This document shows positions 328 through 37,013 of a stretch of DNA of 64,000 nucleotides, piece by piece. Within the stretch, counting starts at the first letter, position 1. Every line of letters begins with the position of its first letter. Location of the stretch: the IMG/VR virus record IMGVR_UViG_3300008107_000012. One strand, given 5' to 3'. Below the pieces are notes generated by a model. It was not told the origin of the DNA, did not search any database, and saw only the letters and a list, made by a program, of their open reading frames with translations. Source of the stretch: a virus. The position numbers and the translations under genes are program-made.

Positions 328-659
328 CTATCAAAACAACTGAACTTCTCAAACTCTTCACCAAAGTAGAAAAACTTGGATTGAGTGTTAATGTTCGTGA
401 AGACAAAGATGGTGATTATGTAATCAAAATCTTCAATATGTTTGAGTTTGATAGCAAATTTGAACCTTATAAGGTAGTTATTACTCAAACAGGTGAGAGT
501 GATTGGAATAAGGGAAATTTTTATTATTTTGATTGTATGATGGATATTCTTGATGAAATGTTAGAAAAACAAAAGCAAAAAGAAATCAAAGAACAAAAAC
601 GACAAGAATTGATTGCTAAACTTACTCCAGAGGAACGAGAACTTTTAAATCTAAACTAA
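324..659 (+). CDS. hypothetical protein, paralog of 6979..7365
   Basis: ORF; C-terminal ELIAKLTPEERELL shared with KVLAKLTQRERELL. Confidence 0.75.
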   Translation: MTIKTTELLKLFTKVEKLGLSVNVREDKDGDYVIKIFNMFEFDSKFEPYKVVITQTGESDWNKGNFYYFDCMMDILDEMLEKQKQKEIKEQKRQELIAKLTPEERELLNLN

Positions 660-666
660 ATAGAAA

Positions 667-725
667 TGTCTGTTGGTACGGCAATACTCTACGGACAGAT
701 TAGGTGCTCTTATGGGCACCTTTTC
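667..725 (+). ncRNA. candidate small RNA antisense to leader of downstream endonuclease (copy 1)
   Basis: TAAATA 657-662; stem 667-673/691-697; terminator 702-725; 669-683 pairs with 741-755. Confidence 0.6.
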
Positions 726-728
726 TAT

Positions 729-736
729 TATAAATA
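729..736 (+). promoter_or_regulatory. T4-type late promoter TATAAATA
   Basis: Exact gp55 consensus 25 nt before ATG 762. Confidence 0.8.
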
Positions 737-761
737 ATAATGCCGTACCAGTAGAATAGAA

Positions 762-1454
762 ATGACTTACCAAAGTCCAAGAATATATTTGTATAAAATT
801 ACCTTTGAAGAGGTTCCGTATTATTACTACGGAGTTCATAAGGAAAAATACTTTAATGAGGAATATTGGGGTTCTCCACAAACTCATAAATGGGTGTGGG
901 ATTTTTATACTCCAAAGAAACAAATACTTCAGGTGTTTTCTTATACTGATGAAGGTTGGTTGGAAGCAAATAATATTGAACGAAGAATAATAAAACCATT
1001 TCTTAATGATAATTTATGTTTAAATGAAGGATGTGCTGGTGCTTTTTCATTTAAAATTGCAAGTGATGCTGGTAAAATGGGAGGACAAAAAACCTATGAA
1101 ATGAAAGTTGGAGTTCACGGAAGAAATGAAGAACAACGAAAAATAGATGCTAAAAAAGGTGGAACTATAGGTGGAAAAATAGCATATAAAATGAAAGTTG
1201 GAGTTCACGGAAGAACCAAAGAACAAAGAAAGATTGATGCTAAAAAAGGTGGAAATGTTGGTGGAAAAATAGCAGTAGAACTTGGATTGGGTATTCACGC
1301 ACTTACTACAGAACAAAGAAGAGAAAATGCTAAAAAAGTTTCCTCACAGAAATGGATGTGTAAAGAAACTGGATTTATAAGTAATGCTGGGGCACTTACT
1401 CATTATCAAAGAAATAGAGGTATAGACACTTCCAAAAGAGTTAGAATAGAATAA
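762..1454 (+). CDS. GIY-YIG-like homing endonuclease with 30-aa tandem repeats
   Basis: N-terminal IYLYKI..YYYGVH, later E and N catalytic-like residues; 90-bp repeats at 1101 and 1191. Confidence 0.7.
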   Translation: MTYQSPRIYLYKITFEEVPYYYYGVHKEKYFNEEYWGSPQTHKWVWDFYTPKKQILQVFSYTDEGWLEANNIERRIIKPFLNDNLCLNEGCAGAFSFKIASDAGKMGGQKTYEMKVGVHGRNEEQRKIDAKKGGTIGGKIAYKMKVGVHGRTKEQRKIDAKKGGNVGGKIAVELGLGIHALTTEQRRENAKKVSSQKWMCKETGFISNAGALTHYQRNRGIDTSKRVRIE

Positions 1455-1455
1455 A

Positions 1456-1513
1456 GGACACTTCCCAAACTGGAACACAGGCACTTGAAAACGGGTGCCT
1501 GATGCCTTATAAT
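1456..1513 (+). promoter_or_regulatory. early promoter cassette (degenerate palindrome + TTGAAA-17-TATAAT)
   Basis: GGACACTTCCCAAACTGGAACA 1456-1477; -35 1485-1490; -10 1508-1513. Confidence 0.8.
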
Positions 1514-1535
1514 ACTCTCATAAGCAACCAAACCG

Positions 1536-1670
1536 ATGACTAACACACATATTCCAAGAGAGGCAAGGATTTATTTTGAGTTAGCAGAACGGGCATATCA
1601 AAACTTTGATTATAAAAAATCTATTGAATATAGAAAACTAGCACAAAAAGAAATTGAGAAACTGAAATGA
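1536..1670 (+). CDS. small hypothetical protein (44 aa)
   Basis: MTNTHIPREARIYF...; first ORF after promoter, coupled to next. Confidence 0.6.
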   Translation: MTNTHIPREARIYFELAERAYQNFDYKKSIEYRKLAQKEIEKLK

Positions 1671-1990
1671 CTGCCTTCACTTACAAAGGATACGGACGCA
1701 TTTACACCAATCCAGAGCACATTCAAGTTGTAGAGGATATTATCAAATTACTTGATGAGTTTGAGTGGGGTTATTATCCACAAGGACTTGTAGCATCTTG
1801 GGATAGGTATCCAAATGTTGAGTATGTTGGTAAGTTTGAACTGAATGGAGAAAAGTTCAAAGAGTTTTGTAAAAAAGCAGACATTCCTGTTTTTATCTTT
1901 GATGCTGGTATGAATGATTATCCTCGTGGTTATGTCAAAACTTTGAATAGAGAAGAAATCAAACAACTTTCTTATGGAGAACTGAAATGA
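1667..1990 (+). CDS. hypothetical protein
   Basis: ORF, ATGA coupling. Confidence 0.75.
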   Translation: MTAFTYKGYGRIYTNPEHIQVVEDIIKLLDEFEWGYYPQGLVASWDRYPNVEYVGKFELNGEKFKEFCKKADIPVFIFDAGMNDYPRGYVKTLNREEIKQLSYGELK

Positions 1991-2394
1991 CTAACCCAGA
2001 AATTATTGTAGAACGAAAAAAATATGGAAATTCTGATGCTATGGATTATACTATAAAAATGTTTCAACGACTTGATGAGAATACCGTGACGATTGATGGT
2101 GTGAAGTATAAGAGAGTAGAAGAACCAAAACCAAAAATGAATTTTCTATTTGATGGAAAGTTTGAGATTGTCTCTTATAATGGTGAGAATTATTATCGTC
2201 TTGAGTTTGATGATGAAAGTCATAGTTGGTATAAGAGAAGAGAGAAACTTGATGGTAATCTCCTGAAACAGATTACTGATGGTGAAACTCATCGTCTTCT
2301 TGAAGGTGTGTGGTTCAACGATGTGAAGAAGGGAAAGTATGATGATGTAGTTGATGAACCTTATAAAAATGTGAGAGCATATTGGAATGTCTGA
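1987..2394 (+). CDS. hypothetical protein
   Basis: ORF, ATGA coupling. Confidence 0.75.
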   Translation: MTNPEIIVERKKYGNSDAMDYTIKMFQRLDENTVTIDGVKYKRVEEPKPKMNFLFDGKFEIVSYNGENYYRLEFDDESHSWYKRREKLDGNLLKQITDGETHRLLEGVWFNDVKKGKYDDVVDEPYKNVRAYWNV

Positions 2395-2602
2395 CCTTGA
2401 AAAACTACTTGAAAAGTTTAATAATCGTCCAGCATCCTTATGGAATGTGATGAGATTTCAACTTGGTTTCTCTGTTGAGCAAAGTAATGAGATTGTATCA
2501 GCAGTAGAGGAATGGATGCCGAATGAGCACGACACGAACTCTTATGAATGGAACAAGTGTGTTAGAATGTTGAGAGAACGACTTTGGGACCAACCAGAAT
2601 GA
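2387..2602 (+). CDS. hypothetical protein
   Basis: ORF in operon. Confidence 0.7.
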   Translation: MSDLEKLLEKFNNRPASLWNVMRFQLGFSVEQSNEIVSAVEEWMPNEHDTNSYEWNKCVRMLRERLWDQPE

Positions 2603-3081
2603 ACGATGAAATGCCTTGGGTTAATCTCACACAAAAAGAAGTTGATGAACTCCGCAAACAAAAGCATACCCTTACTGAATACGGCAAAGAGAAACTTCGC
2701 AAGATGATGAACAACTGCATTCCTGATGATGATGTGATTGAAGAAATGGTGAATGTAAAACTCACCGAAGAGAAGAAAGAAGAACTTGAACGATTGAGAA
2801 GGAGAGAAACAGTTCTTTCACGATACAATCACTTCTATAATGATGAGTGTTCTGGTATGCCTCACGGCACACCAATCACACCAGAACATATGCAGGCACT
2901 CGCACTTGAATGTATGGTTGATGCTCTTATTTGTGAAAATATGAATGTAGAGTATAATGCCATTGCTATTGATGATATTAAGGATTTGATTGCACGATTG
3001 TATCAGCAGAGTAATGAGTATCTTAAAAGAGTACAAGAGAGAGTACAAGAGTTCAAAGATAGTGCTGATGGAGTAGCATAA
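2599..3081 (+). CDS. hypothetical protein
   Basis: ORF; ATG 2599 coupled. Confidence 0.7.
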   Translation: MNDEMPWVNLTQKEVDELRKQKHTLTEYGKEKLRKMMNNCIPDDDVIEEMVNVKLTEEKKEELERLRRRETVLSRYNHFYNDECSGMPHGTPITPEHMQALALECMVDALICENMNVEYNAIAIDDIKDLIARLYQQSNEYLKRVQERVQEFKDSADGVA

Positions 3082-3230
3082 TGAACCTTACTTACCGACA
3101 ACTTATTCTTTTGACGACTGCGATTACTGTGTTCTATGATGAGGTCGCAAAGACATCCACACCTGAAATGAAACAGGAACTAATGGAACTCTCACAGATT
3201 GTTCAAAATGCTGCTATGGAGGCAAAATGA
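3081..3230 (+). CDS. small hypothetical protein
   Basis: MNLTYRQLILL...; coupled both sides. Confidence 0.6.
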   Translation: MNLTYRQLILLTTAITVFYDEVAKTSTPEMKQELMELSQIVQNAAMEAK

Positions 3231-3421
3231 GTATAATGCCACGATTTATCAAAAATCCCGATGAGATTATTCTGGAAGATGTGAAGATGGTTCATTATGA
3301 GGTGATGGAACAAGGTCGTGCTGTGTGGTTGGGTATCTATCTCAACAACGGCAAGATTTATCATCTGAATATTGGTGGTGATAATCTTTATGTGAACTAT
3401 AGTGATGAGAGTATGGAATAA
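3227..3421 (+). CDS. hypothetical protein
   Basis: ORF in operon. Confidence 0.65.
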   Translation: MSIMPRFIKNPDEIILEDVKMVHYEVMEQGRAVWLGIYLNNGKIYHLNIGGDNLYVNYSDESME

Positions 3422-3450
3422 ATACTCTTATGTTTAGATAGTTATTATAA

Positions 3451-4143
3451 GTGGCATTAGCACACTCACCATCCATAGTTACTAATGGTTTGGTCTTATG
3501 TTTAGATGCTGGTAATAGAAAGAGTTATCCTGGTTCTGGAACCACTTGGACTGATTTGAGTGGTCGTGGGAATAATGGAACTCTTACGAATGGACCGACT
3601 TATAGTACTTCTAATGGTGGGAGTATAGTTTTTGATGGTGTTGATGATAAAGGAACTTTTACTTCACCAATAAATTCATCATCACCCCAAACTTATGAAG
3701 TATGGACGAATGCAATAGCATCTGCGACTGCTACCGATAACTATGCATATATTCTTCATAATAATAATGTTGCTAATACAATAGGTTCTTCTTACTTAAC
3801 AATAGGAATTAAACCGACACAACAATATTTTGGATGTTTTAATGGTGCTCTTGCTACTATGGATGCAGGAACAGTAGCAAGTACATCAAATATTGTTCAA
3901 ATCGTCTTAAGTTGGGATGGCTCAACTCAAAATTTATATGTAAATGGAGTTTTGAAAGATTTTGAAGCACTTTCAGTTACACCTCAAAATTTTTCAACCA
4001 CAACATCATTTGGTGATGATAAATCAACTACTTATAGAATGATACAAGGTAGTATCTACTCTATAAAAATATACAACAGAGCCCTCACAGCATCAGAAAT
4101 CCAACAAAACTTCAACGCATTAAGAGGGAGGTTTGGTATCTAA
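3451..4143 (+). CDS. LamG/concanavalin A-like lectin domain virion protein
   Basis: GLVLCLDAGN..SYPGSGTTWTDLSG, FDGVDD, IYNRALTASEIQQNF; late promoter TAAATA 3419-3424. Confidence 0.8.
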   Translation: MALAHSPSIVTNGLVLCLDAGNRKSYPGSGTTWTDLSGRGNNGTLTNGPTYSTSNGGSIVFDGVDDKGTFTSPINSSSPQTYEVWTNAIASATATDNYAYILHNNNVANTIGSSYLTIGIKPTQQYFGCFNGALATMDAGTVASTSNIVQIVLSWDGSTQNLYVNGVLKDFEALSVTPQNFSTTTSFGDDKSTTYRMIQGSIYSIKIYNRALTASEIQQNFNALRGRFGI

Positions 4144-4889
4144 TGGCAATAACTTATGGTGGTGATTTAGCAATTCTATTAAAAATCCCAATACAAGCAA
4201 GTTGTGCATATTCATTAAGAAAGATTGGTGCATATTCAGGAAGTCTTATAAAAGTTAGACGCAGTAGTGATAATACCGAACAAGATATTGGAATACTTAA
4301 TGGGTCACTTGATGAAACTTCTCTTTTGAATTTTTGTGGTTCTGGTGATGGATTTGTAAGTGTTTGGTACGATCAATCTGGTAATGCTAGAAATGCAACA
4401 CAAACAACAACATCTACACAACCAATAATAGTTAGTTCTGGAGTTATTGAAAAGAAAAACAATAGACCTGCTATTAAATTTACTGGAACACAATTATTAT
4501 CTTCTCCAACGATAGCATTTGGAACCACATTTACTGTTTTTCAAAGATCTACAACAAACCAAGTTATCTCAGAATTAGTTGGAGCAGCAAATAATAGAGG
4601 ATTGATTGCTGGTTCTAGTGGTAATTCTACATATTGGACTCACGATCAATATGCTGTAAATGGTGGAAGTCTTTCAGCAAATCAACCAAATGCTGCTGTT
4701 GGGTCTACGTTGTTTCAAGTAACGGGAGCAGGTCTCAAAGAAACATCTCGTTCGCATCAAATAGGTTTTGGTAGTCCATCTTGGGAATCTTTGATTGGGT
4801 ATTTACCTGAACTTATAATATATCCTACTGATATATCAAGTTTAAGAAGAGGAATTGAGATCAACCAAATGAGATATTACGGAATCTAA
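4143..4889 (+). CDS. ConA/LamG-like fold protein
   Basis: AYSLRK..VRRSSDN.EQDIG, VSVWYDQSGN, ELIIY. Confidence 0.7.
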   Translation: MAITYGGDLAILLKIPIQASCAYSLRKIGAYSGSLIKVRRSSDNTEQDIGILNGSLDETSLLNFCGSGDGFVSVWYDQSGNARNATQTTTSTQPIIVSSGVIEKKNNRPAIKFTGTQLLSSPTIAFGTTFTVFQRSTTNQVISELVGAANNRGLIAGSSGNSTYWTHDQYAVNGGSLSANQPNAAVGSTLFQVTGAGLKETSRSHQIGFGSPSWESLIGYLPELIIYPTDISSLRRGIEINQMRYYGI

Positions 4890-4911
4890 ATACCTAAAAA
4901 CAGAGAGTAAG

Positions 4912-5445
4912 ATGGGTGTTTTTGCTGGGCCTGCATCTCAAGGTGATTTTTTATATGATGCTGGATTGTTTGGAAAGAGATATAATGGATATTATGCGGA
5001 TAATGTTTCTTATTTTACTAAAGTAAGACAGCAAGGAGATACAAATACAACAACATCTATCAATAGTTTTACAAGTAGTGCTGATTCTTATAGTTGGATG
5101 TGGTTGGGATATTTTTTAGCACCTTCAACAGGAACTTATACATTTTACACATCGTCAGACGATGCAAGTCATCTGTGGATTGGTTCTAATGCTTTAGTTG
5201 GATTCACAACAACAAATGCTACAGTAAATAATGGTGGTTTGCACGGAGTTCTGGAGTTAAGTGGAACAACAACATTAACTGCTGGTGAATATTATCCTAT
5301 GAGAGTTGTGTTTGGAGAAAACGGTGGTGGAGATATTATTACGGTATCTTTTGCAGGTCCATCAATCACAAAAACCACAAATGGTTCTGGATATTATTTT
5401 GGTGGTAAAAGATTGTGGGAAATACTTGAAAAAGAAAATGTATGA
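4912..5445 (+). CDS. PA14/GLEYA-like carbohydrate-binding domain protein
   Basis: W.GYFLAP.TGTYTF.T.SDDASHLWIG, YYPMRVVFGENGGG; TAAATA 4887-4892. Confidence 0.8.
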   Translation: MGVFAGPASQGDFLYDAGLFGKRYNGYYADNVSYFTKVRQQGDTNTTTSINSFTSSADSYSWMWLGYFLAPSTGTYTFYTSSDDASHLWIGSNALVGFTTTNATVNNGGLHGVLELSGTTTLTAGEYYPMRVVFGENGGGDIITVSFAGPSITKTTNGSGYYFGGKRLWEILEKENV

Positions 5446-5499
5446 CACTTTCCAAACTGTCCACTGGGTGCCCACAAGGCACCTTTTTAATGCTATAAT
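5443..5499 (+). promoter_or_regulatory. early promoter cassette with embedded terminator hairpin
   Basis: TGACACTTTCCAAACTGTCCA; GGGTGCC-CACAA-GGCACC-TTTTT; TGcTATAAT 5494-5499. Confidence 0.75.
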
Positions 5500-5518
5500 A
5501 CTCTTATGAAACCCAAGA

Positions 5519-5821
5519 ATGATGAACCTTCTTCAACGATACAAGAACTACACACGCAAGCAGTATAATCGTTACTGTTATGATGGTGATTTTGAACCTC
5601 ATTTCAGGTGGAACCCATTTGATACAAACAACGATTGGGTGTATGATAATGATAAGTGGAGACACTTTATCTGGGGATTTCAAAATATAGCAAATGCTTG
5701 GGAGGCGTGGTCTTATTGGATGAGAGATAAGAAGTATTCTTATAAACTTCCTTATGCACTTTGGAGTGAGTTGAATGATGGTTATATGCAAATGGAAGTT
5801 TATTGTTGGACGAAGAAATGA
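5519..5821 (+). CDS. hypothetical Trp-rich protein
   Basis: ORF after promoter. Confidence 0.65.
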   Translation: MMNLLQRYKNYTRKQYNRYCYDGDFEPHFRWNPFDTNNDWVYDNDKWRHFIWGFQNIANAWEAWSYWMRDKKYSYKLPYALWSELNDGYMQMEVYCWTKK

Positions 5822-6661: not shown

Positions 6662-6670
6662 GGACACCTG

Positions 6671-10888: not shown

Positions 10889-11485
10889 ATGGACTTTGAT
10901 TACAAAAAATATTCACTTGAAAAACTGAATGAATGGATGCACGATGCAATCTCCTGCAGTGAAGCAACACCGCAGGAGATTTATGATGTGATTAAAGATG
11001 TAGTGAGTGAGAACTATTACACTTACAAGAATGAAACTGAAAAGTGTTATGAACTTCTGGCACTTTTGAATGGTAATGGCAAGGGTCACATTCAAGCATA
11101 TGATGATTATATTCGAGAGAATGAAGATGTGACATATGATTATCCCAATGAGAACGGCATTTATTTCTGCGAGAGTGATGACCCAGCACCTTATTGCAAA
11201 GGTTCTTGGAGTAGTTTCTGGAATGACGATCATACTGAAGCATTAACTTATGGAGAAATGGTTGACAAAGGTTATGAAATGACTGGTGATGGGTTTTGGA
11301 TTCCTCCACAAAAAGGTAAAGTAGTCAAGTGGCAACTTCCTGTAGAGGTTGATGGATTGTCTGGTGAATGTTATGTCAACTTTCCCGATGATTTGCTAGA
11401 AGCAGCAAATCTCAAAGAAGGTGATAAGGTAGAGTGGGTAGATAATAATGATGGTAGTTTTACACTGAGGAAAGTTAATAAATAA
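10889..11485 (+). CDS. hypothetical protein with C-terminal AbrB/MazE-like domain
   Basis: YVNFPDDLLEAANLKEGDKVEWVDNNDGSFTLRKV. Confidence 0.65.
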   Translation: MDFDYKKYSLEKLNEWMHDAISCSEATPQEIYDVIKDVVSENYYTYKNETEKCYELLALLNGNGKGHIQAYDDYIRENEDVTYDYPNENGIYFCESDDPAPYCKGSWSSFWNDDHTEALTYGEMVDKGYEMTGDGFWIPPQKGKVVKWQLPVEVDGLSGECYVNFPDDLLEAANLKEGDKVEWVDNNDGSFTLRKVNK

Positions 11486-11488: not shown

Positions 11489-11538
11489 TACCTGAATGAC
11501 GGCAATCTTCAGGAGGAGGGTGAAAGTCCCTCCTTTTT
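11489..11538 (+). ncRNA. candidate antisense small RNA (copy 2)
   Basis: TAAATA 11479-11484; stem CCTGAA/TTCAGG; terminator AGGAGGG/CCCTCCT-TTTT; 11492-11504 pairs with 11553-11565; second TATAAATA 11541-11548. Confidence 0.6.
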
Positions 11539-11574
11539 ATTATAAATAATAATGCCGTCATTTAGAGTAGAGTT

Positions 11575-12411
11575 ATGGTAAATCCATATAGATTTTATAC
11601 TTATGCATATTTGCGTAAAGACAGAACTCCTTATTACATAGGTAAAGGTTCTGGATATAGAATTTATGATAAAGGTAGAAGAGAATTTAAACCGCCGAAA
11701 GATAAATCAAGAATAATATTCCTCAAGCAAAATCTCACCGAAGAAGACGCATTCAAGCACGAAAGATATATGATTGCGTTCTTTGGTAGAAAAGATTTAG
11801 GAACTGGTATTCTTCGTAATAGAACTGATGGTGGAGAAGGTGGTAGTGGATGTATTGCAAGTGAAGAAACTAGAAGAAAAAGAAGAGAGACGAGTATTGG
11901 AAGAATAGTATCTCAAAAAACTAGAGATAAAATAAGTAAAGCAAATACAGGTAAAACTCATTCTGAAGAAACTAAAAAGAAGTTAAGTGAAATTAACAAA
12001 GGTAAAAAAATAAGCAAGGAACATTTACAAAAATTACAAAAAGGAAGTTTAACAGAAGAAACTAGAAGAAAACTTAGTCAGGCACGCAAAGGAAAAAAAC
12101 TTTCAGATGAAACTAGAAAAAAATTGAGTGAATTACATAAAGGAAAAAAATTAAGTAAAGAACATATAGAAAAAATAAAACAAACAAAGATTAAAATCGG
12201 TGGTAAATATACATATGAAATAATTTCTCCACAAAATCAAATATTTAAATCTAACAATTTAAAACAATTTTGTAGAGAGCACAATTTGCATAGTAGTCAT
12301 ATGTCTGCTGTAAGTAGAGGTAAAATGCAGCACTATAAAGGATGGATAGTAACAAGAACTCTTAAATGCGAGTTGTTTGACAAAAATAAATTAAAATCGT
12401 ATAATATCTAA
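11575..12411 (+). CDS. GIY-YIG homing endonuclease with NUMOD3-like repeats
   Basis: FYTYAYLR..TPYYIGKG, LRNRTDGGEG, repeated (H)SEETRRKLS. Confidence 0.85.
   Translation: MVNPYRFYTYAYLRKDRTPYYIGKGSGYRIYDKGRREFKPPKDKSRIIFLKQNLTEEDAFKHERYMIAFFGRKDLGTGILRNRTDGGEGGSGCIASEETRRKRRETSIGRIVSQKTRDKISKANTGKTHSEETKKKLSEINKGKKISKEHLQKLQKGSLTEETRRKLSQARKGKKLSDETRKKLSELHKGKKLSKEHIEKIKQTKIKIGGKYTYEIISPQNQIFKSNNLKQFCREHNLHSSHMSAVSRGKMQHYKGWIVTRTLKCELFDKNKLKSYNI
12377..12405 (+). promoter_or_regulatory. consensus sigma70 promoter inside 3' end of endonuclease
   Basis: TTGACA 12377-12382, 17 bp, TATAAT 12400-12405. Confidence 0.8.
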
Positions 12412-15851: not shown

Positions 15852-15910
15852 TGTGCCAGTTCCAAAACTGTCCACCAGACCCCTCACGGGGTCTTTTTTT
15901 GTGCTATGAT
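15852..15910 (+). promoter_or_regulatory. early promoter cassette with embedded terminator
   Basis: TGTGCCAGTTCCAAAACTGTCCA; AGACCCC-TCAC-GGGGTCT-T6; TGcTATGAT. Confidence 0.75.
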
Positions 15911-16168: not shown

Positions 16169-16210
16169 GAAGTTGACCATTATGACTTTTTGAGTTATAA
16201 TGGTTTTATT

Positions 16211-16295
16211 GTTACCTTGTTGAAACTGGCAGACAAATCAGATTTTAATATCTGATGGGTAGACACCCGTGCAGGTTCGACCCCTGCAGGTAACT
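16211..16295 (+). tRNA. atypical class II (Leu-like) tRNA with 8-nt anticodon loop; possibly pseudo
   Basis: Acceptor GTTACCT/AGGTAAC, D-loop GG, stem TCAGA/TCTGA with loop TTTTAATA, variable arm GGGT/ACCC, T-arm GCAGG-TTCGACC-CCTGC; no CCA. Confidence 0.75.
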
Positions 16296-19469: not shown

Positions 19470-19526
19470 GGACACTTCCCGAACTGTCCACCAGACCCCC
19501 TACGGGGTCTTTTTTTGTGCTATATT
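19470..19526 (+). promoter_or_regulatory. early promoter cassette with embedded terminator
   Basis: GGACACTTCCCGAACTGTCCA; AGACCCC-CTAC-GGGGTCT-T6; TGcTATATT. Confidence 0.75.
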
Positions 19527-20133: not shown

Positions 20134-20158
20134 CTTAAAACTGACTACTAAATACTAA

Positions 20159-20215
20159 TGCCTTAGTTGACCGCAATCTGTAAGGTAGGAGAGGAGCAGA
20201 AATGCTCCTTTTCTT
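20159..20215 (+). ncRNA. candidate antisense small RNA (copy 3)
   Basis: TAAATA 20149-20154; stem GCCTTA/TAAGGT; terminator GGAGCA-GAAA-TGCTCC-TTTT; 20165-20175 pairs with 20229-20239; TATAAATA 20217-20224. Confidence 0.6.
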
Positions 20216-20250
20216 GTATAAATACTACTGCGGTTAACTTAAGAGCAGTT

Positions 20251-20946
20251 ATGTCTAATCAAGGCAAGATTTATTGTGCTCACTGTATTTTTACAGGGAA
20301 GAAATACATTGGACAAACAGTTAAAAAATATTTGAATTATAGAATAACAGAGCATTTTGCAGACTGTGTAAATTATAATCATAAGTTTGCAAATGCAATC
20401 AAAAAATATGGTAGAAATGGATTTATTTGGGGAATAGTTGAAGAATGTGATATTTCAATCTTAAATGATAGAGAGGTTTATTGGATAGAAAAATACGATA
20501 CATTTAATAATGGATATAATACAACTACTGGTGGAAATCAGGGAAGAGAATATTGCATAAAAGAATACCTTGTAGAAAAACCTAATGGGAACAGAGAGGA
20601 AATTAAAAATCTTTCTCAATATTGTAGAGATAATGACTTAAATATTGCACATATTCACGAAACACTTTATGGTAAGAGAGTTCAGCATAAAGGGTATAAA
20701 CTTATTCCAAGAACTGATTATGAAATTGAAAAATATGAAAATGAAAGAAGAATACGAAAAGATACCAGTAGAAAAAGATTGCCTGGAGAAAGAAATGGTA
20801 GAGCAATTCTTGATTGGAACAAAGTTAGTGAAATAAGAAGATTGCACTCAAGTAAGAAATATAAAAACCAGGAAATAGCAGATATGTTTGGAATTAAAAA
20901 GGTTACACTTGAAAAGATAGTTGCAAATAAACTGTGGACAGTTTGA
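20251..20946 (+). CDS. GIY-YIG homing endonuclease with C-terminal HTH
   Basis: GKIYC..KKYIGQT, RE..WI..Y..GYN.T.GG; start re-set to ATG 20251 after late promoter. Confidence 0.85.
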   Translation: MSNQGKIYCAHCIFTGKKYIGQTVKKYLNYRITEHFADCVNYNHKFANAIKKYGRNGFIWGIVEECDISILNDREVYWIEKYDTFNNGYNTTTGGNQGREYCIKEYLVEKPNGNREEIKNLSQYCRDNDLNIAHIHETLYGKRVQHKGYKLIPRTDYEIEKYENERRIRKDTSRKRLPGERNGRAILDWNKVSEIRRLHSSKKYKNQEIADMFGIKKVTLEKIVANKLWTV

Positions 20947-22511: not shown

Positions 22512-22982
22512 ATGGGTCTTGACATGTATCTCTATGCGAAGCAGTTTGTTGCTTCTTCTGCCTGGTCTAAGGAAGAAGATTGCAAGAAAGTGAAATCTAT
22601 TGCACGATTGATGAAAGGAACCAAGTTCTTGGATTCTGATGATCTGCAATTTGCTGAAGTGAAATTGCAACTTGCCTATTGGCGAAAAGCAAATCAAATT
22701 CACAAGTATTTTGTGGATAAGTGTGGTGGTGGTAAAGATGAATGTCAAGACATCTATGTGCCTCAAGATGCTCTTGTAGATCTTCTGTGGAGGTGTGAAA
22801 CCATCCTGAAAGATAAGAGTCGAGCAGAAGAACTGCTGCCTCCTCAATCTGGTTTCTTCTTCGGTGGCACTGAACTTGATGAGTATTATTATCGGGATCT
22901 GGAGCATACGATTCCTGTACTTCAAAAGATTCTCAAGAATGCTCAAGAATCTTGGGAGTTTGAGTACAAAGCAAGTTGGTAA
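22512..22982 (+). CDS. conserved phage protein (MGLDMYL family)
   Basis: MGLDMYL, YWRKANQIH, LLP..SGFFFG, YKASW. Confidence 0.8.
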   Translation: MGLDMYLYAKQFVASSAWSKEEDCKKVKSIARLMKGTKFLDSDDLQFAEVKLQLAYWRKANQIHKYFVDKCGGGKDECQDIYVPQDALVDLLWRCETILKDKSRAEELLPPQSGFFFGGTELDEYYYRDLEHTIPVLQKILKNAQESWEFEYKASW

Positions 22983-23040
22983 GGACACTTTGAGAACTGG
23001 CACAAGGGCACTTGAGTTTCCTTGAGTGCCCTGCTATACT
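22983..23040 (+). promoter_or_regulatory. early promoter cassette
   Basis: GGACACTTTGAGAACTGGCACA; AGGGCACT/AGTGCCCT stem; TGcTATACT. Confidence 0.75.
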
Positions 23041-23197: not shown

Positions 23198-23249
23198 TGC
23201 CTTAACTGACCGCAATCTGTAAGGTGGGAGGAGAGAAATCTCCTCCTTT
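23198..23249 (+). ncRNA. candidate antisense small RNA (copy 4)
   Basis: TAAATA 23188-23193; stem GCCTTA/TAAGGT; terminator GGAGGAGA-GAAA-TCTCCTCC-TTT; 23204-23214 pairs with 23266-23276; TATAAATA 23254-23261. Confidence 0.6.
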
Positions 23250-23289
23250 GTATTATAAATACTAATGCGGTTAGTTTAAGAGTGGAACT

Positions 23290-23889
23290 ATGGTAAATCC
23301 ATATAGATTTTATACCTATGCGTATTTGCGTGAGGATGGAACTCCTTATTACATAGGTAAAGGTCAAACAAATAGAATGTATTATAAATGTAAAATTGGT
23401 GATATTAGACCACCAGTAGATAAAACTAAAATTATTTTTCTCAAACAAAATTTAACTGAAGAGGAAGCATTTAAGCACGAAAAATATATGATTTCTATTC
23501 TTGGTAGAAAAGATTTGGGAAATGGTATTCTAAGAAATAGAACTAATGGTGGAGATGGAGTTTCTGGAAAAATATGGTCTGCGGAGGAAAGAAAATTAAA
23601 ATCTCAATCTTATCAGGGAATTAACAATCCATTTTATAACAAAACTCACACTAAAGAATCTAGAAGTAAAATAAAAGAAAGTAGGTCAAAAGAGTATATA
23701 ATTTATAGTCCAACATCAAAAGTATATAAAATTAAAAATTTAAAAGATTTTTGTATGCAGAACAACTTGGATTATACCAATATGAATAAACTTTCAAATA
23801 AAAGGTATAAATTTGGAAGTTCTTATAAGGGATGGACAGTTGAGAAACTGGAACAAACACTTCCCGCAGAGGCACCAAATACCCTATAA
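23290..23889 (+). CDS. GIY-YIG homing endonuclease, paralog of 11575..12411
   Basis: Near-identical N-terminus MVNPYRFYTYAYLR..YYIGKG; NPFYNKTHT NUMOD3-like motif. Confidence 0.85.
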   Translation: MVNPYRFYTYAYLREDGTPYYIGKGQTNRMYYKCKIGDIRPPVDKTKIIFLKQNLTEEEAFKHEKYMISILGRKDLGNGILRNRTNGGDGVSGKIWSAEERKLKSQSYQGINNPFYNKTHTKESRSKIKESRSKEYIIYSPTSKVYKIKNLKDFCMQNNLDYTNMNKLSNKRYKFGSSYKGWTVEKLEQTLPAEAPNTL

Positions 23890-31364: not shown

Positions 31365-31456
31365 TGTGCCACTTGTTCTTGTGGCACACTAAATGAGCAC
31401 GGACCCCAAAATGTGGTATTATTAAAGGGTGGAGGGAGCAAGTCCCACCCGAGTCC
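31365..31456 (+). repeat. long promoter-cassette repeat, copy C
   Basis: See copy A/B. Confidence 0.85.
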
Positions 31457-31477
31457 AATTCCCAATTCTCTACAACA

Positions 31478-31819: not shown

Positions 31820-31974
31820 ATCTAACTGATGATTGACGTTCTTCTTGCTTCAACGATTATCGGTCAGGTTGTAATTGGACCGAATCAAATCCAAACAGAA
31901 TACATTACTGACCGTAATCAAGTGATTACGATTGTCGAGACCATTCAAGAAACTTACAACTATCCCAACTGATT

Positions 31975-32148
31975 ATGAATCGCACTGAACTGATTGAAGC
32001 ATACGTTGACCGTATCCTTGATAACATGAGCACCAAAGATTTGATGCGAATTGTTGGAGACCAACTGGATGAAAACTTCAGTTCTTATAGTGATGAAGAA
32101 CTGATTGCTGAAATTACTGAATACTACCCTGAATTGCTTGAGGAGTGA
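31975..32148 (+). CDS. small acidic protein, paralog of 34230..34457
   Basis: Y.DRILDNM.TKDL..YSDEELIAEI. Confidence 0.7.
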   Translation: MNRTELIEAYVDRILDNMSTKDLMRIVGDQLDENFSSYSDEELIAEITEYYPELLEE

Positions 32149-32155
32149 GAACTGA

Positions 32156-32215
32156 TGTGCCAGTAATTCTTCTGGCACATTACACTCCCCAAACCCCACC
32201 TGTCCCTGCTATACT
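32156..32215 (+). promoter_or_regulatory. early promoter cassette
   Basis: TGTGCCAGTAATTCTTCTGGCACA; TGcTATACT. Confidence 0.8.
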
Positions 32216-32237
32216 GAACACAGTTCAACAAACGACC

Positions 32238-32654
32238 ATGCCTGTGACTTTCACCGACAACTACAAAGAAGTTTTCGCAACCGAAACTGTTGAGAAAATT
32301 GAAGAACTGCTGGAAGATAACTATTGCCTGGAAGACATCCTTGAGTTTATTGACCAAAATACGGAAGAAGATTTCCGTGACTATTATGAAGAGTATGTGA
32401 CTGCTGGTGAGGATTATGGTTACAGTGCAGTCGATGCTTTCATTGAAGAGTTTGGACTTGATTGTGTTTCTTCCTTTACCGAATCTTACCAAGGTGAGTA
32501 TTCGAGTGAGGCACAGTTTGCAGAACAGTTCTGCGAAGACATGGGTTATGAAGTTCCTTCCTTTGTAATTGTTGATTGGCAAGAAACTTTTGATTACAAC
32601 CTGCAGTATGACTATTCCTATGTGAATGGTTATGTCTTCAACAAAAACTTCTGA
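32238..32654 (+). CDS. ArdA-like antirestriction / DNA-mimic protein
   Basis: Very acidic; YQGEYSSEAQFAEQ..VIVDWQ..DY..NGYVF resembles ArdA C-terminus. Confidence 0.65.
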   Translation: MPVTFTDNYKEVFATETVEKIEELLEDNYCLEDILEFIDQNTEEDFRDYYEEYVTAGEDYGYSAVDAFIEEFGLDCVSSFTESYQGEYSSEAQFAEQFCEDMGYEVPSFVIVDWQETFDYNLQYDYSYVNGYVFNKNF

Positions 32655-32661
32655 GTGAAGT

Positions 32662-32703
32662 GAATCAGCACCTTATTTCTTTGAGGTGCTGATTCTTATT
32701 TTT
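32662..32703 (+). terminator. hairpin/terminator
   Basis: GAATCAGCACCT/AGGTGCTGATTC then TTATTTTT. Confidence 0.6.
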
Positions 32704-32722
32704 CCACATTCCTCTTCTTTTA

Positions 32723-32971
32723 ATGTTTAATCAACTTACATTTGTCCCGCATTGTATTCCAAATGCAGTGCAAGGAAAGTACAAGTTTTCCAATGGTTGG
32801 GAGATTAGTGTAGTCTCTGGTGATGCTAAGTCTGGTCTATACGGTCGAATTGCTGAGTTTACTTATGAAGTTGCAATCTTTCGACCGAATGGAAACATGA
32901 CTGAAGATGTAAGTGGTTGGAATACTAAAGAAGAAGTATCTGCGATGATGTGGGTACTGTCTCAACTCTAG
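32723..32971 (+). CDS. conserved phage protein
   Basis: FSNGWEISVV..GLYG..YEVAI..DV.GW. Confidence 0.75.
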   Translation: MFNQLTFVPHCIPNAVQGKYKFSNGWEISVVSGDAKSGLYGRIAEFTYEVAIFRPNGNMTEDVSGWNTKEEVSAMMWVLSQL

Positions 32972-32983
32972 TCTCTTATACCG

Positions 32984-33043
32984 TGTGCCACTTGTTGAAG
33001 TGGCACAGTCAACCCCCCAGACCCCCCTCCCCCGTGGTAGACT
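32984..33043 (+). promoter_or_regulatory. early promoter cassette (most perfect palindrome)
   Basis: TGTGCCACTTGTTGAAGTGGCACA; TGgTAGACT. Confidence 0.8.
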
Positions 33044-33267
33044 GAACGGAGTTCAGGGATGAGAGATGACCACTGCTCAACGGATGGAAAGGCAATTCTT
33101 CCTCAAAATGATTGCTCTTGTGAATGAAGTGCAAAGTGATAAAACCATTCTCAAGTCGCAATCTGGTTCTTATCGCAAATCTGCTTGGTGCAAGACGATT
33201 AAGAATCCCAAGCAAGATCAATCTGCACTTGCTTCTGTCTGAGTTCTTTCTTTAACAACAAACCAAA

Positions 33268-33456
33268 ATGTGCTGCTTTCACACTGAACAAGAACCTGCA
33301 TTTGGACACTACACTTTTCGACACTACACTTTTCAGGTGTCGCAAGTATCCCGTGAAGATGCAATCGAACTGGCAAATGTTCTGAGGCAATCTGATTCTG
33401 AGTTCATCCGTAGGTTCGGACTTGAGATTGAATCTGAACTGATGGAACTGACATAG
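33268..33456 (+). CDS. hypothetical protein
   Basis: ORF. Confidence 0.6.
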   Translation: MCCFHTEQEPAFGHYTFRHYTFQVSQVSREDAIELANVLRQSDSEFIRRFGLEIESELMELT

Positions 33457-33487
33457 ATTGTTTCTTTCTAACTCTTTTCTTCTACCA

Positions 33488-33673
33488 ATGATGAAACTCA
33501 CTAAAGCACAAAAAGAGATTCTTCTCACTCTTGAAAATGGTGATGAAGTTCTTAATTATGCACAACGTATGCGAGCACTTCAACCACTCATTGATGCTGG
33601 TATTGTTTACATTAAGGTGACGAATGATAAAAATGGTATCACAGAAGATGTAAGAGTTGCACTGGTTGATTAA
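33488..33673 (+). CDS. hypothetical protein (winged-helix-like)
   Basis: KLTKAQKEILL..LQPLIDAGIV. Confidence 0.6.
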   Translation: MMKLTKAQKEILLTLENGDEVLNYAQRMRALQPLIDAGIVYIKVTNDKNGITEDVRVALVD

Positions 33674-33707
33674 ATCTTTCTTCCATCTGTCCCACATAAA
33701 CAATTTC

Positions 33708-33827
33708 ATGAACGATTCCACACTCGATCTCTTCACTGAACATGAAGATACACAAGATGCAACAATCGAAGAACTTGCTGCAGAACTTGAAATCACCGTT
33801 GATTATTACATCGCAGAGTTTATGTGA
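33708..33827 (+). CDS. tiny acidic protein
   Basis: ..IEELAAELEITVDYYIAEFM. Confidence 0.6.
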   Translation: MNDSTLDLFTEHEDTQDATIEELAAELEITVDYYIAEFM

Positions 33828-33897
33828 TGATGTATGTGATGATGAGTATGATTCGATTCTAGAATCCTCTCCCACTGATTGGTTCTCTTTTTCTTCA

Positions 33898-34080
33898 ATG
33901 ACTCAAATGGACATCAACAACGCAATCTCTGCTGCACTTGCAAATCTCTCCAATCTGAATGAGCAAGTTTATGACTACTGGGTCACTGAACTTTATACTG
34001 ATGATGGTGAAATGATTGATGAGATGTGGAATGAGCAAACACTTTGTGAAATGGAAAAGGATGTGATGTATAACTTCTGA
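33898..34080 (+). CDS. acidic hypothetical protein
   Basis: ORF from MTQMDIN. Confidence 0.6.
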   Translation: MTQMDINNAISAALANLSNLNEQVYDYWVTELYTDDGEMIDEMWNEQTLCEMEKDVMYNF

Positions 34081-34229
34081 AATCCAAATTAACTTCATTT
34101 CATTATGATTAAGTACACTTTCGACATTCACACTCAACAACCAGTTTATGTTGTGTGTGATGTGAATCATCAAGCACTGATGATTACAACCAACATCTGC
34201 ACTGCAATCAACAAACTTCAACAATCCAA

Positions 34230-34457
34230 ATGACTCTAACTCCTCAACAATTTGATGATCTTGTTTCTCTTTATGCTGAGAAACTTGTCGATGGAATGGA
34301 CATGAAAACTATGGAACAATTTGTCTATGACACTATTGTTCATAATGTGGAATGTATGTCAGAAGGTGATCTAATCAATGAGGTTGCTAATTATTTTGAT
34401 GATGAATTGCCCGAAATGATTAAATCTATTGGTGCTGATCCTGATACTATTCTCTGA
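34230..34457 (+). CDS. acidic hypothetical protein
   Basis: Paralog of 31975..32148. Confidence 0.7.
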   Translation: MTLTPQQFDDLVSLYAEKLVDGMDMKTMEQFVYDTIVHNVECMSEGDLINEVANYFDDELPEMIKSIGADPDTIL

Positions 34458-34462
34458 CGATT

Positions 34463-34669
34463 ATGATTTTTCAAGTTACTGAAATTGAGTTTGATTTCAC
34501 TGATGATCTTGATGAAGAAGCATTAGATCAAGAAACACAAGATGAGATTTATGATGAAGTTATCGGTCAAATCTGGGAAGCAGATGATGAAGATGATCTA
34601 GTTGAAGAGATTACTTGTGCTACAGGTTGGTGCATTAAATTCATTGATTATCGACACATTCTAGAATGA
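34463..34669 (+). CDS. highly acidic hypothetical protein
   Basis: WEADDEDDLVEEITCATGWCI. Confidence 0.7.
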   Translation: MIFQVTEIEFDFTDDLDEEALDQETQDEIYDEVIGQIWEADDEDDLVEEITCATGWCIKFIDYRHILE

Positions 34670-34872
34670 CACTCTCAAATCAAACATTTCATAAACTCTC
34701 ATCTGCACTTAAAGATGAAGTTGTTGAGTTCATTATTTCAGATGAACGTTATGCAGAGTTCATGCTTCAAGAGATGATTCCTGAAGCAATTCAATCAAAA
34801 CTTGGTCCTGTAGATGATGAAGTATTGATGCAACTTTCCTTCTGTATTTTCGACCTGATTATCCTTCAATGA
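34666..34872 (+). CDS. hypothetical protein
   Basis: ATGA-coupled. Confidence 0.65.
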   Translation: MTLSNQTFHKLSSALKDEVVEFIISDERYAEFMLQEMIPEAIQSKLGPVDDEVLMQLSFCIFDLIILQ

Positions 34873-35118
34873 CACAATACACTTATACTGTTATTGGTGG
34901 TACAAATGAGTATGAATGTGATGTTGCATCACTTCAACTGTTTGATCGAAAATCACAAGCACAACAGTATGCAGAAGATATAGAAAAGATGTGGGGTTAT
35001 GAGTATGTTTCTATTTCTGTAAAGGAGATTCAATGAAGAAGAAAAAGAAAGAAAAGATTGAACTACTGTCTAAAGCACAAGATGGTAATGAACTTCTTAT
35101 TATTCTCAAAGCACTGAA

Positions 35119-35358
35119 ATGAATCTTTATATCATCAATGATGTTCTTTATGATTACACTGCAGGAATGTGTGTAATTGCTGCTGAATCTCTACAACGTT
35201 GCGAACAAGTTTTTATGAAAGAATTTACATGTGATGATGACAGTAATTATACTAAACAGGAAAGGCAAAATGAGTTTGATGTTGCAGGAATTAAAGTGAT
35301 TGAGAATGTTCCTTACGAGAAGGAAGAAGTTGTATCCTATGTTTATGGTGGAGGTTGA
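35119..35358 (+). CDS. hypothetical protein
   Basis: ORF ending VVSYVYGGG. Confidence 0.7.
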   Translation: MNLYIINDVLYDYTAGMCVIAAESLQRCEQVFMKEFTCDDDSNYTKQERQNEFDVAGIKVIENVPYEKEEVVSYVYGGG

Positions 35359-35362
35359 TAAA

Positions 35363-35560
35363 ATGACTCTTCCATCTTACAATGCAATCTCTTTTCATTC
35401 TGAAGAAGAACATCAAGCAGCACTGTATGATGCTTGTCTGTTGATTGTGAATACTTACAACCAAACAGATATGCTGGATGGTTATGATGATCGTGCTTTA
35501 ACTTCATACGACTTTATGAAGTTTGCTCGTCGTATTATTAACAATTACGATTGCAACTGA
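35363..35560 (+). CDS. hypothetical protein
   Basis: GGAGG SD. Confidence 0.65.
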   Translation: MTLPSYNAISFHSEEEHQAALYDACLLIVNTYNQTDMLDGYDDRALTSYDFMKFARRIINNYDCN

Positions 35561-35561
35561 A

Positions 35562-35720
35562 ATGACTACTACCTACCAACTGATTGAGATTCTTCAAGAA
35601 AAGTGTCTTGAAGATAATGATTTAATGTTTACAATCATTGATGAGTATGTTTCCTCTATGAATGAAGATGAATTAAAGACGTTGGAAGATTTTGTTGTGA
35701 ACAATTTTGGAGATGATTGA
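35562..35720 (+). CDS. small acidic protein
   Basis: ORF. Confidence 0.6.
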   Translation: MTTTYQLIEILQEKCLEDNDLMFTIIDEYVSSMNEDELKTLEDFVVNNFGDD

Positions 35721-35905
35721 ATGAAAGTATAACAATAACGTTATATTAAAAAACGTATTAAAAAACATATATTACTGTTTTATCTCTTTGTGTTGATTTG
35801 ATGACTAATGCCTTCTAGGTCTTGATTCTTATGTTCTATAAACCCTTCTAGACCTTGATTCTTATAATCAATTAAATGCGTCTGGGTCTTGTGATCTTAG
35901 CCCGC

Positions 35906-35934
35906 ACTCTATCACATCTCCGCACAAAAGTCAA
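35906..35934 (-). promoter_or_regulatory. leftward sigma70-like promoter
   Basis: Minus strand TTGACT-17-TAGAGT with TG extension. Confidence 0.45.
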
Positions 35935-36108
35935 GTACCCCCAGGACACATAAAAAACCCCCACACCCCACATTATAACAATATCACACTTCTGTTATAT
36001 CTTATAACACACTCCCAGACATTCATATAACACTTCACCAGACACTTCTGTATGCCCCTGTAAGGCACTCATAAACTCTCTCAGGGGTCATAGTACTGAA
36101 TTGCCATC

Positions 36109-36681
36109 CTAAAGTATAAAGTTAGAAAAGTCCGGTAGTTTCTTATCATCCTTAAGATTACTTTTTTGATTTTTTACTTGTGCCCTTATATTCTCTTTTC
36201 TTTTCTCTAAGTTGATTTCGTTAATGCTTTTATTTTCAATTACTTTGTTTTGACATAGTTTTTCTTCTAATTCACAGTCCATAGAACTAATAAAATCAAT
36301 AAAACTTTCTCTAATCTTTTTATATTCACTTAAAGGAAGTTTTTCAAGTTTCTTTATCTGTGTGTTTTTCCATTCTAAATGAGTTAGAAGATTGCTTTGT
36401 TGTTTTAATAACTCAGCAAAAGTATTATCAATCCATTCATTTATAGAATTGATGGTATTATCTTTAGTTTTCTCTTTTTGATAGATTATATCTTCAGTAT
36501 CACTTTTTGATATTTTTAATATTTCTGTTTTATTTTTAATAATATCTCCAATTCCTTTTTTACGATTGAGATTGAAAGTGGAGATTGAATTGAATTCTTT
36601 TTTAATGTCCTCTATTTGGATATAATCTAATCCATCAACATTAAAGACTTCATTTAACTTTTTACAGTTAAAGTGTTCCAT
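36109..36681 (-). CDS. hypothetical coiled-coil protein; the only credible minus-strand gene
   Basis: 190-aa ORF preceded by TATAAATA (36708-36715, minus). Confidence 0.7.
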   Translation of the reverse strand: MEHFNCKKLNEVFNVDGLDYIQIEDIKKEFNSISTFNLNRKKGIGDIIKNKTEILKISKSDTEDIIYQKEKTKDNTINSINEWIDNTFAELLKQQSNLLTHLEWKNTQIKKLEKLPLSEYKKIRESFIDFISSMDCELEEKLCQNKVIENKSINEINLEKRKENIRAQVKNQKSNLKDDKKLPDFSNFIL

Positions 36682-36717
36682 ATCTGTTCTGTTTGGGTTG
36701 CAGAAGTTATTTATATT

Positions 36718-36777
36718 AAAGGGAGCAGAGAGAATCTAACTCTGCTCCCCGTCTGTAAAGTGCAACCCAAACAGACA
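36718..36777 (-). ncRNA. candidate antisense small RNA (copy 5)
   Basis: TAAATA 36781-36786 (minus); stem GTCTGT/ACAGAC; terminator GGGAGCAGAG/CTCTGCTCCC-TTT; 15-nt perfect complement 36761-36775 vs 36688-36702. Confidence 0.6.
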
Positions 36778-37013
36778 TTATATTTATCAAATACCCAGTA
36801 TTGATAAATATCATAAAACCCTGATAATTGTATATAATTGAATATTAAGTATATAAATAACCGAGTATGAAATACAATAATTAGGATTGAACTTAAAGTA
36901 AATTTCTATTCCAAGAGAGCACAATAGGCAGTTCACCTGATGAGATAAGTCTTTCGCACAGGACAAATAGAAATCTCTGCTACTTTCAGTAATGATTATT
37001 GTTTATAGTATAA

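Follow-up and report, generated by a model that had tools for sequence, protein, structure and literature searches.

A portable cassette of terminator, long-range hairpin and late promoter at free-standing homing endonuclease genes of T4-like cyanophages

Five copies of one module in a freshwater viral contig

The stretch of DNA analysed here (the window) comprises 64 kb of a 95.5-kb viral contig, IMG/VR record IMGVR_UViG_3300008107_000012 (GC 35%), which originates from freshwater metagenomes. The closest cultured relative is the Kyanoviridae (T4-like) Synechococcus phage S-SRM01, to which the matches are patchy, at 84%. Positions 1-36,000 of the window are taken up by a run of small open reading frames (ORFs), mostly on the plus strand, with sigma-70-like promoter matches throughout, the count of which is not above that in shuffled sequence. 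The run resembles the usual early, hyperplastic region of a T4-like phage. Our subject is a compact module that stands immediately upstream of five genes of the window.

An earlier note on this DNA, made from the letters of the window, had claimed that five loci share one architecture, and all five were confirmed at the positions listed below. In each of them the order is a TAAATA box, a spacer of 4-5 nucleotides (nt), a 5' arm of 15-16 nt, a short segment that pairs back with the first 5-8 nt of this arm to form a local stem (SL1), a GC-rich hairpin with a T tract, a perfect TATAAATA late promoter motif, a 5-nt spacer, a leader complementary to the 5' arm, and the ATG. The order is thus as the note had it, while its figures for the spacer behind the upstream promoter box (3-4 nt) and for the local stems (6-7 bp, here 5-8 bp) required correction. 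The 15-mer of copy 5 is indeed perfect, and the deviations in the pairing cores of the other copies are G-U pairs as described, with the amendment that copies 3 and 4 each hold one as well. The features are as follows (strand in brackets; lengths of proteins in amino acids, aa).

657-662 (+): copy 1, upstream late-promoter-like box in ACTAAATA context; its TAA doubles as the stop codon of ORF 324-659
668-696 (+): copy 1, SL1; 5' arm 668-683, seed in the loop
697-728 (+): copy 1, predicted intrinsic terminator, core stem 702-721, with T tract
729-736 (+): copy 1, TATAAATA late promoter
741-761 (+): copy 1, leader; 3' arm 741-755 pairs with 668-683
762-1454 (+): copy 1, gene of 230 aa with a weak homing-endonuclease match (phrog_314)
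11479-11484 (+): copy 2, upstream box, AATAAATA; left junction of the cassette relative to an allele (L082) that lacks the homing endonuclease gene (HEG)
11490-11513 (+): copy 2, 5' arm 11490-11504 and SL1 11491-11513
11514-11540 (+): copy 2, terminator hairpin 11514-11534, with T tract
11541-11548 (+): copy 2, TATAAATA late promoter
11553-11574 (+): copy 2, leader; 3' arm 11553-11569
11575-12411 (+): copy 2, GIY-YIG/NUMOD3 homing endonuclease, 278 aa
12377-12405 (+): perfect sigma-70-type promoter, within the copy 2 gene at its 3' end; behind it an AAGGAG Shine-Dalgarno sequence serves the next gene (ATG 12428)
20149-20154 (+): copy 3, upstream box, ACTAAATA; the stop of the preceding ORF lies 16 nt before it
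20160-20186 (+): copy 3, SL1; 5' arm 20160-20175
20187-20216 (+): copy 3, terminator hairpin with T tract
20217-20224 (+): copy 3, TATAAATA late promoter
20229-20250 (+): copy 3, leader; 3' arm 20229-20246
20251-20946 (+): copy 3, GIY-YIG homing endonuclease, 231 aa
23188-23193 (+): copy 4, upstream box, AATAAATA
23199-23225 (+): copy 4, SL1; 5' arm 23199-23214, differing from copy 3 in two compensated pairs
23226-23253 (+): copy 4, terminator hairpin 23226-23247, with T tract
23254-23261 (+): copy 4, TATAAATA late promoter
23266-23289 (+): copy 4, leader; 3' arm 23266-23285
23290-23889 (+): copy 4, GIY-YIG/NUMOD3 homing endonuclease, 199 aa, paralogue of the copy 2 gene
36781-36786 (-): copy 5, upstream box, GATAAATA
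36751-36776 (-): copy 5, SL1; 5' arm 36761-36776
36716-36750 (-): copy 5, terminator hairpin 36720-36750, with short T tract
36708-36715 (-): copy 5, TATAAATA late promoter
36682-36702 (-): copy 5, leader; perfect 15-nt 3' arm 36688-36702
36109-36681 (-): copy 5, orphan gene of 190 aa, no family match

Four of the five genes are of free-standing homing-endonuclease types, having GIY-YIG/NUMOD3 or PHROG homing-endonuclease matches. The proposal that the modules serve phage nucleases holds for these four; the copy 5 gene cannot be recognised as a nuclease. The copy 2 and copy 4 genes are paralogues, and those of copies 1 and 3 come from other lineages; modules 3 and 4 are 81% identical in front of unrelated genes. 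The copy 5 protein had no match in Pfam, in PHROGs or by feature or fold comparison, and its homologues are a handful, from metagenomes. Neither homology searching nor the protein atlas pointed to a function for it. In this area no other gene lies clearly on the minus strand.

Beside copy 5, at 37010-37370 (+), a divergent intergenic region holds units of about 70 bp that all point rightward; in each of them a sigma-70-type -10 element comes after a conserved AAAGTTCATTCGTGATTAGATA-like word. The orthologous contigs L135, L137 and L138 repeat the AAAGTTCATTCGTGATTAGATA-like word several times, and the region looks like an early-promoter or iteron array.

Covariation, promoter motifs and mobility of the cassette

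Related modules were gathered from viral contigs using the copy 2 protein and then its upstream neighbour as queries, and also from cultured phages; the collection comprises 39 distinct modules. The MAFFT alignment and covariation cover 19 modules, the folding of SL1 23 and the conservation of the box 25. A covariance model built from the relatives was searched against the contig, and at E<=1 it returned exactly the five modules (E 1e-8 to 1e-13) and no further copies. Rfam gave no matches across the whole window at the gathering score, and at E<=1 the segment 20100-23320 produced only an unrelated HrrF match at 22908-23034, with 22 bits against a threshold of 77.

For the read-through RNA of all five copies, the minimum free energy (MFE) structure is a long-range stem that encloses the terminator and the promoter, with an MFE of -35 to -44.5 kcal/mol and z scores of -4.1 to -7.0 against dinucleotide shuffles. 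The contig contains 116 TAAATA sites, and when these were ranked by the energy of the duplex between their upstream and downstream sequences the five modules took ranks 1-5. Other TAAATA sites with moderate duplex scores (7493 and 5225, and 12247 and 25357 on the minus strand) had neither a terminator nor the anatomy of the module. The TATAAATA motif occurs 12 times in the contig, five of these occurrences belonging to modules. Under-representation of this motif was considered as a sign of function and was not supported, as 12 were observed against 10.2 expected from a first-order Markov model.

RNAalifold returned a 14-bp stem from the 19-module alignment, with compensatory double changes at 12 of the 14 pairs. 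In this alignment 95.5% of the stem cells are paired, a figure that falls to 29-48% when the partner is slid by 1-3 columns, and none of 500 shuffles, which score 0.29, reaches the observed covariation score of 0.79. Counted over all 39 modules, the pairs comprise 587 of the Watson-Crick and 31 of the G-U type, and A-C mismatches account for only about four of the unpaired cells in the 19-module alignment. Since G-U pairs are many and A-C mismatches few, the pattern fits a helix of sense-strand RNA and not a DNA cruciform. Furthermore, the arms diverge freely between modules and always do so with compensation. The long-range pairing is selected at the RNA level; the earlier note had favoured RNA over DNA pairing, and the compensatory changes and the sense-strand-specific excess of G-U over A-C bear it out.

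The leader measures 13-26 nt in the 39 modules and lies entirely within the duplex, so that the 5' untranslated region of the late mRNA as a whole is in effect the 3' arm. With bulges allowed, the duplex comes to within 0-5 nt of the ATG in 38/39 modules; the extension across bulges to near the ATG that had been proposed is therefore correct, and only its distance of 3-6 nt is to be replaced. Duplexes between cognate arms and leaders reach -18 to -26 kcal/mol, compared with -4 to -17 kcal/mol for non-cognate combinations, with some cross-talk between copies 3 and 4 in seed-leader pairing. Besides the cognate leaders, the seeds have no second target of at least 10 nt in the contig.

In all modules the loop of the long-range hairpin contains a predicted intrinsic terminator, a GC-rich helix of 7-12 bp followed by a U tract, which covaries at all five pairs tested. 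An RNA ending at this terminator is predicted to fold as SL1 and then the terminator in each of the 23 modules tested, and in all 23 the anti-leader seed is found in the SL1 loop of 10-16 nt. When the arm was held fixed and the spacer shuffled, SL1 folding was weaker in every case, the real spacers having a mean z of -2.3. At the four outer pairs of SL1 pairing reaches 96%, and each of the four shows double changes. SL1 cannot form together with the outer part of the long-range stem, and the initial 5-8 nt of the arm thus have two covarying partners.

The TAAATA of the upstream box is invariant in 25/25 modules at 4-5 nt before the 5' arm, and an A precedes it in 21 of them, while the 25 nt upstream of the box carry only 0-0.4 bits per position. 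The inner TATAAATA is perfect in 5/5 copies and in 33/39 modules and stands 5 nt before the first base of the 3' arm. The box 8-mers AATAAATA, GATAAATA and ACTAAATA also recur in other parts of the contig at a distance of 8-35 nt before large ORFs, on the coding strand in almost all cases, and the NATAAATA and NCTAAATA forms are the sole inner promoter of some modules. NATAAATA is a published cyanophage late motif (PMC2984593). By its sequence, the upstream box matches the promoter class of this phage. In T4, late transcription usually starts about 6 nt after the motif. If this spacing applies, the upstream transcript would start at the base of SL1, which is flush with the predicted +1 of the box, and the mRNA would start at the first base of the 3' arm.

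Several other identities were considered for the upstream box. A sigma-70 -10 element was rejected, there being no conserved -35 and no information in the flanks, as was a mere cluster of stop codons, the stop of the upstream ORF falling in the box in only 11/25 modules. A nuclease recognition site or a nuclease-specific operator was likewise discarded because the module is common to unrelated genes and endonuclease families. Finally, the box is not a pre-existing promoter of the interrupted host gene, given that the HEG-less alleles have no such motif at the junction. Since the HEG-less allele is without the box, the box belongs to the mobile cassette.

This mobility is seen at copy 2. In HEG-less relatives the upstream gene (A) and the next gene (B) overlap (GTTAATGG), and precisely at this overlap the window carries the entire unit as an insertion. 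It runs from the box through the perfect TTGACA-17-TATAAT promoter in the end of the endonuclease gene, and then the AAGGAG for gene B follows. There are also metagenome contigs that skip roughly the copy 2 segment, with imprecise ends. In other contigs the shared terminator-promoter core is joined to different, mutually compensated arms, with joins near 11510/11557 and 20192/20224. Among cultured phages S-SRM01 carries six copies, B23 three and the marine phage S-B68 one, and core-gene sites in cultured phages lie, for example, between the gp59-side gene DUF1825 and gp32, between gp46 and its neighbour, between PhoH and dexA, and between gp43 and uvsX. The module precedes GIY-YIG genes, a different endonuclease family (phrog_655) and orphan genes. 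Each of the five loci is a copy of a portable cassette of free-standing HEGs, and occasionally of other genes, in T4-like cyanophages (Kyanoviridae). The mobility of the cassette, its anatomy, its covariation and the match of its promoter motifs to the promoter class of this phage are observed directly in the sequences compared.

Two further layouts were encountered among the contigs. In the first ("type B"; L012-L018, L031-L033, L038 and L078) the module lies about 100 nt upstream of the endonuclease start and has, after its TAAATA box, the conserved segment TTGAA(C)TATCGTCGGCGC, next a long, bipartite hairpin that ends in a T tract, and finally TATAAATA and the leader. Consistent complementarity between arm and leader was not found in these type B modules. 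In the second ("type C"; L011, L024, L025, L045, L047, L050, L051, L056 and L134, the last being Synechococcus phage Sf-CH5) an anti-leader of 11-15 nt occupies the apical loop of a terminator-like hairpin and there is no upstream box; the downstream part has a late promoter and then a leader that ends 0-1 nt before the ATG.

The annotated starts of L081 2953-3654 (S-SRM01 QPX48040.1) and of L135/L136 (a 218-aa call, P0006) fall inside the regulatory module, so that these genes have probably been called too long. In GenBank, several of the endonucleases bear the erroneous name "translation initiation factor 2".

Elsewhere in the window, near-identical terminators at 15877-15894 and 19493-19510 (+), each AGACCCC..GGGGTCT and then TTTTTTTGTGC, may be another regulatory repeat of the early region. 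ARAGORN called a tRNA-like gene with a four-letter anticodon (ttaa) at 16211-16295 (+), just after a sigma-70-like promoter at 16173-16201, and 42699-55127 (+) is a single ORF of 4142 aa.

Probable silencing in cis and a possible discrete anti-leader RNA

We think it likely that a cis-acting mechanism of insulation and delay operates here, much like that of the T4 I-TevI, segB and Aeh1 mobE hairpins. Transcription coming from upstream would mostly be halted at the GC-rich terminator. In the RNA that reads through, the 5' arm would pair with the entire short leader to within 0-5 nt of the AUG and thereby block ribosome binding. Late in infection, the gp55-type promoter TATAAATA between terminator and leader would begin an mRNA at the first base of the 3' arm, and since this mRNA would be without the 5' arm it should be translatable. 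In copy 2 at least, the 3' end of the cassette would in addition provide the host gene downstream with a new early promoter and Shine-Dalgarno sequence. We infer all of this transcriptional and translational behaviour from the arrangement of the elements.

Two hallmarks of T4-type silencers are present, namely a stable hairpin whose 3' arm covers the ribosome-binding region and a late promoter inside that hairpin, its start site being predicted. The ORFs that precede copies 1-4 run in the same direction and stop 0-18 nt short of the cassette, so that upstream transcription into these copies is plausible, and the terminator lies between those ORFs and the regulated gene. Some observations weigh against cis silencing as the whole account. 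The AUG itself is mostly left unpaired, and the invariant upstream box and the covarying SL1 have been kept though a cis model needs neither. At copy 5, moreover, there is little for read-through silencing to act on.

Copy 5 is the most telling case. No co-directional gene was found upstream of it or in the orthologous contigs, and in the 1.6 kb upstream of its gene the sigma-70-like promoters form an array that points entirely the opposite way. Copy 5 nevertheless retains the box, the perfect 15-nt arm, SL1 and the terminator. In four orthologues the flanks cannot be aligned and the 4-nt spacer differs, and the box is still GATAAATA or TATAAATA. Since there is no co-directional upstream gene, the box would be the simplest way to transcribe the 5' arm.

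This leads to a second reading, which we hold tentatively, in which a discrete late RNA represses in trans in addition to the silencing in cis. Here the box would be an active late promoter and its transcript would run from the base of SL1, in most cases only as far as the terminator, giving an RNA of about 50-75 nt with two hairpins. The SL1 loop would nucleate on the 5' end of the late mRNA, and pairing would then zip through the Shine-Dalgarno region so that translation is throttled. The box is evidently under selection, being invariant and at fixed spacing between flanks that are not conserved, which a stop codon does not explain. It is part of the cassette, and its variants resemble working promoters. 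The predicted RNA also has the shape typical of antisense RNAs, with a covarying SL1 that exposes its seed in the loop, where it is accessible and complementary to the translation-initiation region, and with a terminator of its own that is predicted to give it a defined 3' end. Its cognate pairing is specific by duplex energy, and in copy 5 there is no other obvious way to transcribe the 5' arm. In this respect the view of the earlier note that the upstream unit looks self-contained stands, given that every related module examined has the late-type box, the 5'-flush stem-loop with its loop seed, and the terminator. Taken together, the conserved box, SL1, the terminator and the setting of copy 5 make a discrete anti-leader RNA of about 50-75 nt plausible.

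Other points tell against such an RNA. A repressor and a target made simultaneously from adjacent promoters would not be an obvious arrangement, and SL1 could instead serve to protect terminator folding or the 3' termini of mRNAs from upstream. In 11/25 modules the box provides a stop codon as well, and the seeds have no second target in the contig. Since the type C relatives are without the upstream box, a dedicated promoter is not required for the family.

In its fullest form, this proposal would have the HEG cassettes carry their own tandem repressor RNA of the sense strand, which acts in trans on an mRNA that starts 70 nt downstream, including that of identical cassettes in co-infecting genomes, with seed and leader as a private, co-evolving address. 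We regard this form as rather doubtful. The immunity against a co-infecting phage that had been suggested found no support; no extra seed targets were present in the contig. The likeness to a type I antitoxin also fails: none of the genes encodes a small toxin (less than about 60 aa), the targets being endonuclease-like proteins of 199-278 aa and an orphan of 190 aa, and the putative RNA would lie in tandem on the same strand upstream of the promoter of its target, with no antisense overlap. If the box does fire, it would to our knowledge be the first phage late promoter devoted to a small RNA regulator that lies in tandem with the gene it targets, and if the RNA acts as proposed, the cassettes would offer a compact seed/leader design that is orthogonal and comes in dozens of natural variants.

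The inverted repeat and its boxes could instead act as DNA, that is as a cruciform, as a recombination hot spot of the PeSL kind or as an operator of the endonuclease. The sharing of modules by unrelated genes and the contigs that join one terminator-promoter core to different arms would fit recombination, and I-TevI is known to bind an operator over its own late promoter (PMC2988022). However, the 31 G-U pairs in the 39 modules against about four A-C cells are strand-specific as for RNA, the diverging arms are always compensated, and unrelated endonuclease families share the boxes, which leaves no specific operator. We therefore consider a DNA-level element improbable. As for chance resemblance in AT-rich intergenic DNA, at a GC content of 35% TAAATA-like words are indeed common (116 in the contig), and yet this explanation is refuted by the top five ranks among these sites, the z scores of -4 to -7, the E values of 1e-8 to 1e-13 and the covariation in 39 modules.

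Homing endonucleases are selfish nucleases that need tight control, for which the T4 hairpin with its late promoter is the textbook solution. Freshwater and marine cyanophages have a more elaborate, portable version of it, in which terminator, silencer and late promoter are joined, in copy 2 at least, by an early promoter. The combination of terminator, silencer and replacement promoter in one cassette would explain how these genes can land harmlessly between essential genes.

Relation to known systems

Loop-to-5'-end antisense control is exemplified by RNA-OUT/RNA-IN of IS10, and IstR-1/tisB is a type I system in which the antitoxin RNA is encoded adjacent to its target. The putative RNA of the cassettes would resemble these in being a short two-hairpin RNA with a loop seed, whose target is the 5' end and ribosome-binding region of the mRNA of a neighbouring, potentially harmful gene. 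In contrast to them, it would be encoded in tandem on the same strand, neither antisense nor divergent, and its targets are proteins of 190-278 aa and not small membrane toxins. A non-coding RNA described earlier from a cyanophage, CfrI of S-PM2 (Millard et al. 2010, cited in PMC2984593), is also linked to a homing endonuclease gene; as summarised there, it is about 225 nt long and antisense to the endonuclease gene and psbA. On that summary CfrI is a true antisense transcript and has no architectural similarity to the modules described here. The "ncRNA" paper on S-CREM1 contains only Rfam matches, which are unrelated to the cassettes.

The PeSL cassettes (PMC2839356, PMC4122927) are similar as small portable units of terminator plus promoter that lie by accessory genes, are associated with insertions and deletions and are common to unrelated genes. 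They differ in having a sigma-70 early promoter and no anti-leader pairing, whereas here a late-type promoter is placed between complementary arms. Membership of the PeSL group was rejected, as what follows the terminator is the TATAAATA late promoter, the early-type promoter of copy 2 being at the 3' end of the cassette.

The closest functional parallel is provided by I-TevI, I-TevII, I-TevIII, segB and Aeh1 mobE, in which a hairpin hides the ribosome-binding site on early or middle read-through transcripts and the late promoter is so placed that late transcripts are without the inhibitory arm (PMC2988022). Hairpins of the same type precede T4 e, soc and 49, and promoters for the downstream host gene are embedded in endonuclease genes (PMC2988022). 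The cassettes share with these silencers the inverted repeat over the ribosome-binding region, the internal TATAAATA, the association mostly with homing endonucleases and the embedded downstream promoters. They depart from them in the strong intrinsic terminator added in the hairpin loop, in a 3' arm that is the entire leader from the predicted +1, and in a second conserved late-promoter box that precedes the 5' arm, the arm itself being pre-folded in a covarying stem-loop.

Dassa et al. (2009) reported hairpins containing TATAAATA and two mutually complementary motifs upstream of free-standing HEGs at fractured-gene loci of the marine GOS metagenomes (PMC2677866). As far as the available text goes, these likewise come from environmental cyanophage-like sequences and have a late promoter of the T4/Aeh1 type upstream of the HEG start. 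Compared by description only, they are probably the same or a sister family. The available text treats the structure as a cis hairpin only and mentions no upstream box or local stem (PMC2677866), and the word "terminator" is absent from it. Since a cis hairpin with an internal late promoter has already been published, for T4 and for HEGs of cyanophage-like sequences (PMC2988022, PMC2677866), the core of the cassette is not new, and the novelty suggested in the earlier note is confined to what surrounds that core. What goes beyond the earlier descriptions is the terminator in the hairpin loop, the invariant upstream box, and the covarying SL1 that holds the anti-leader in its loop.

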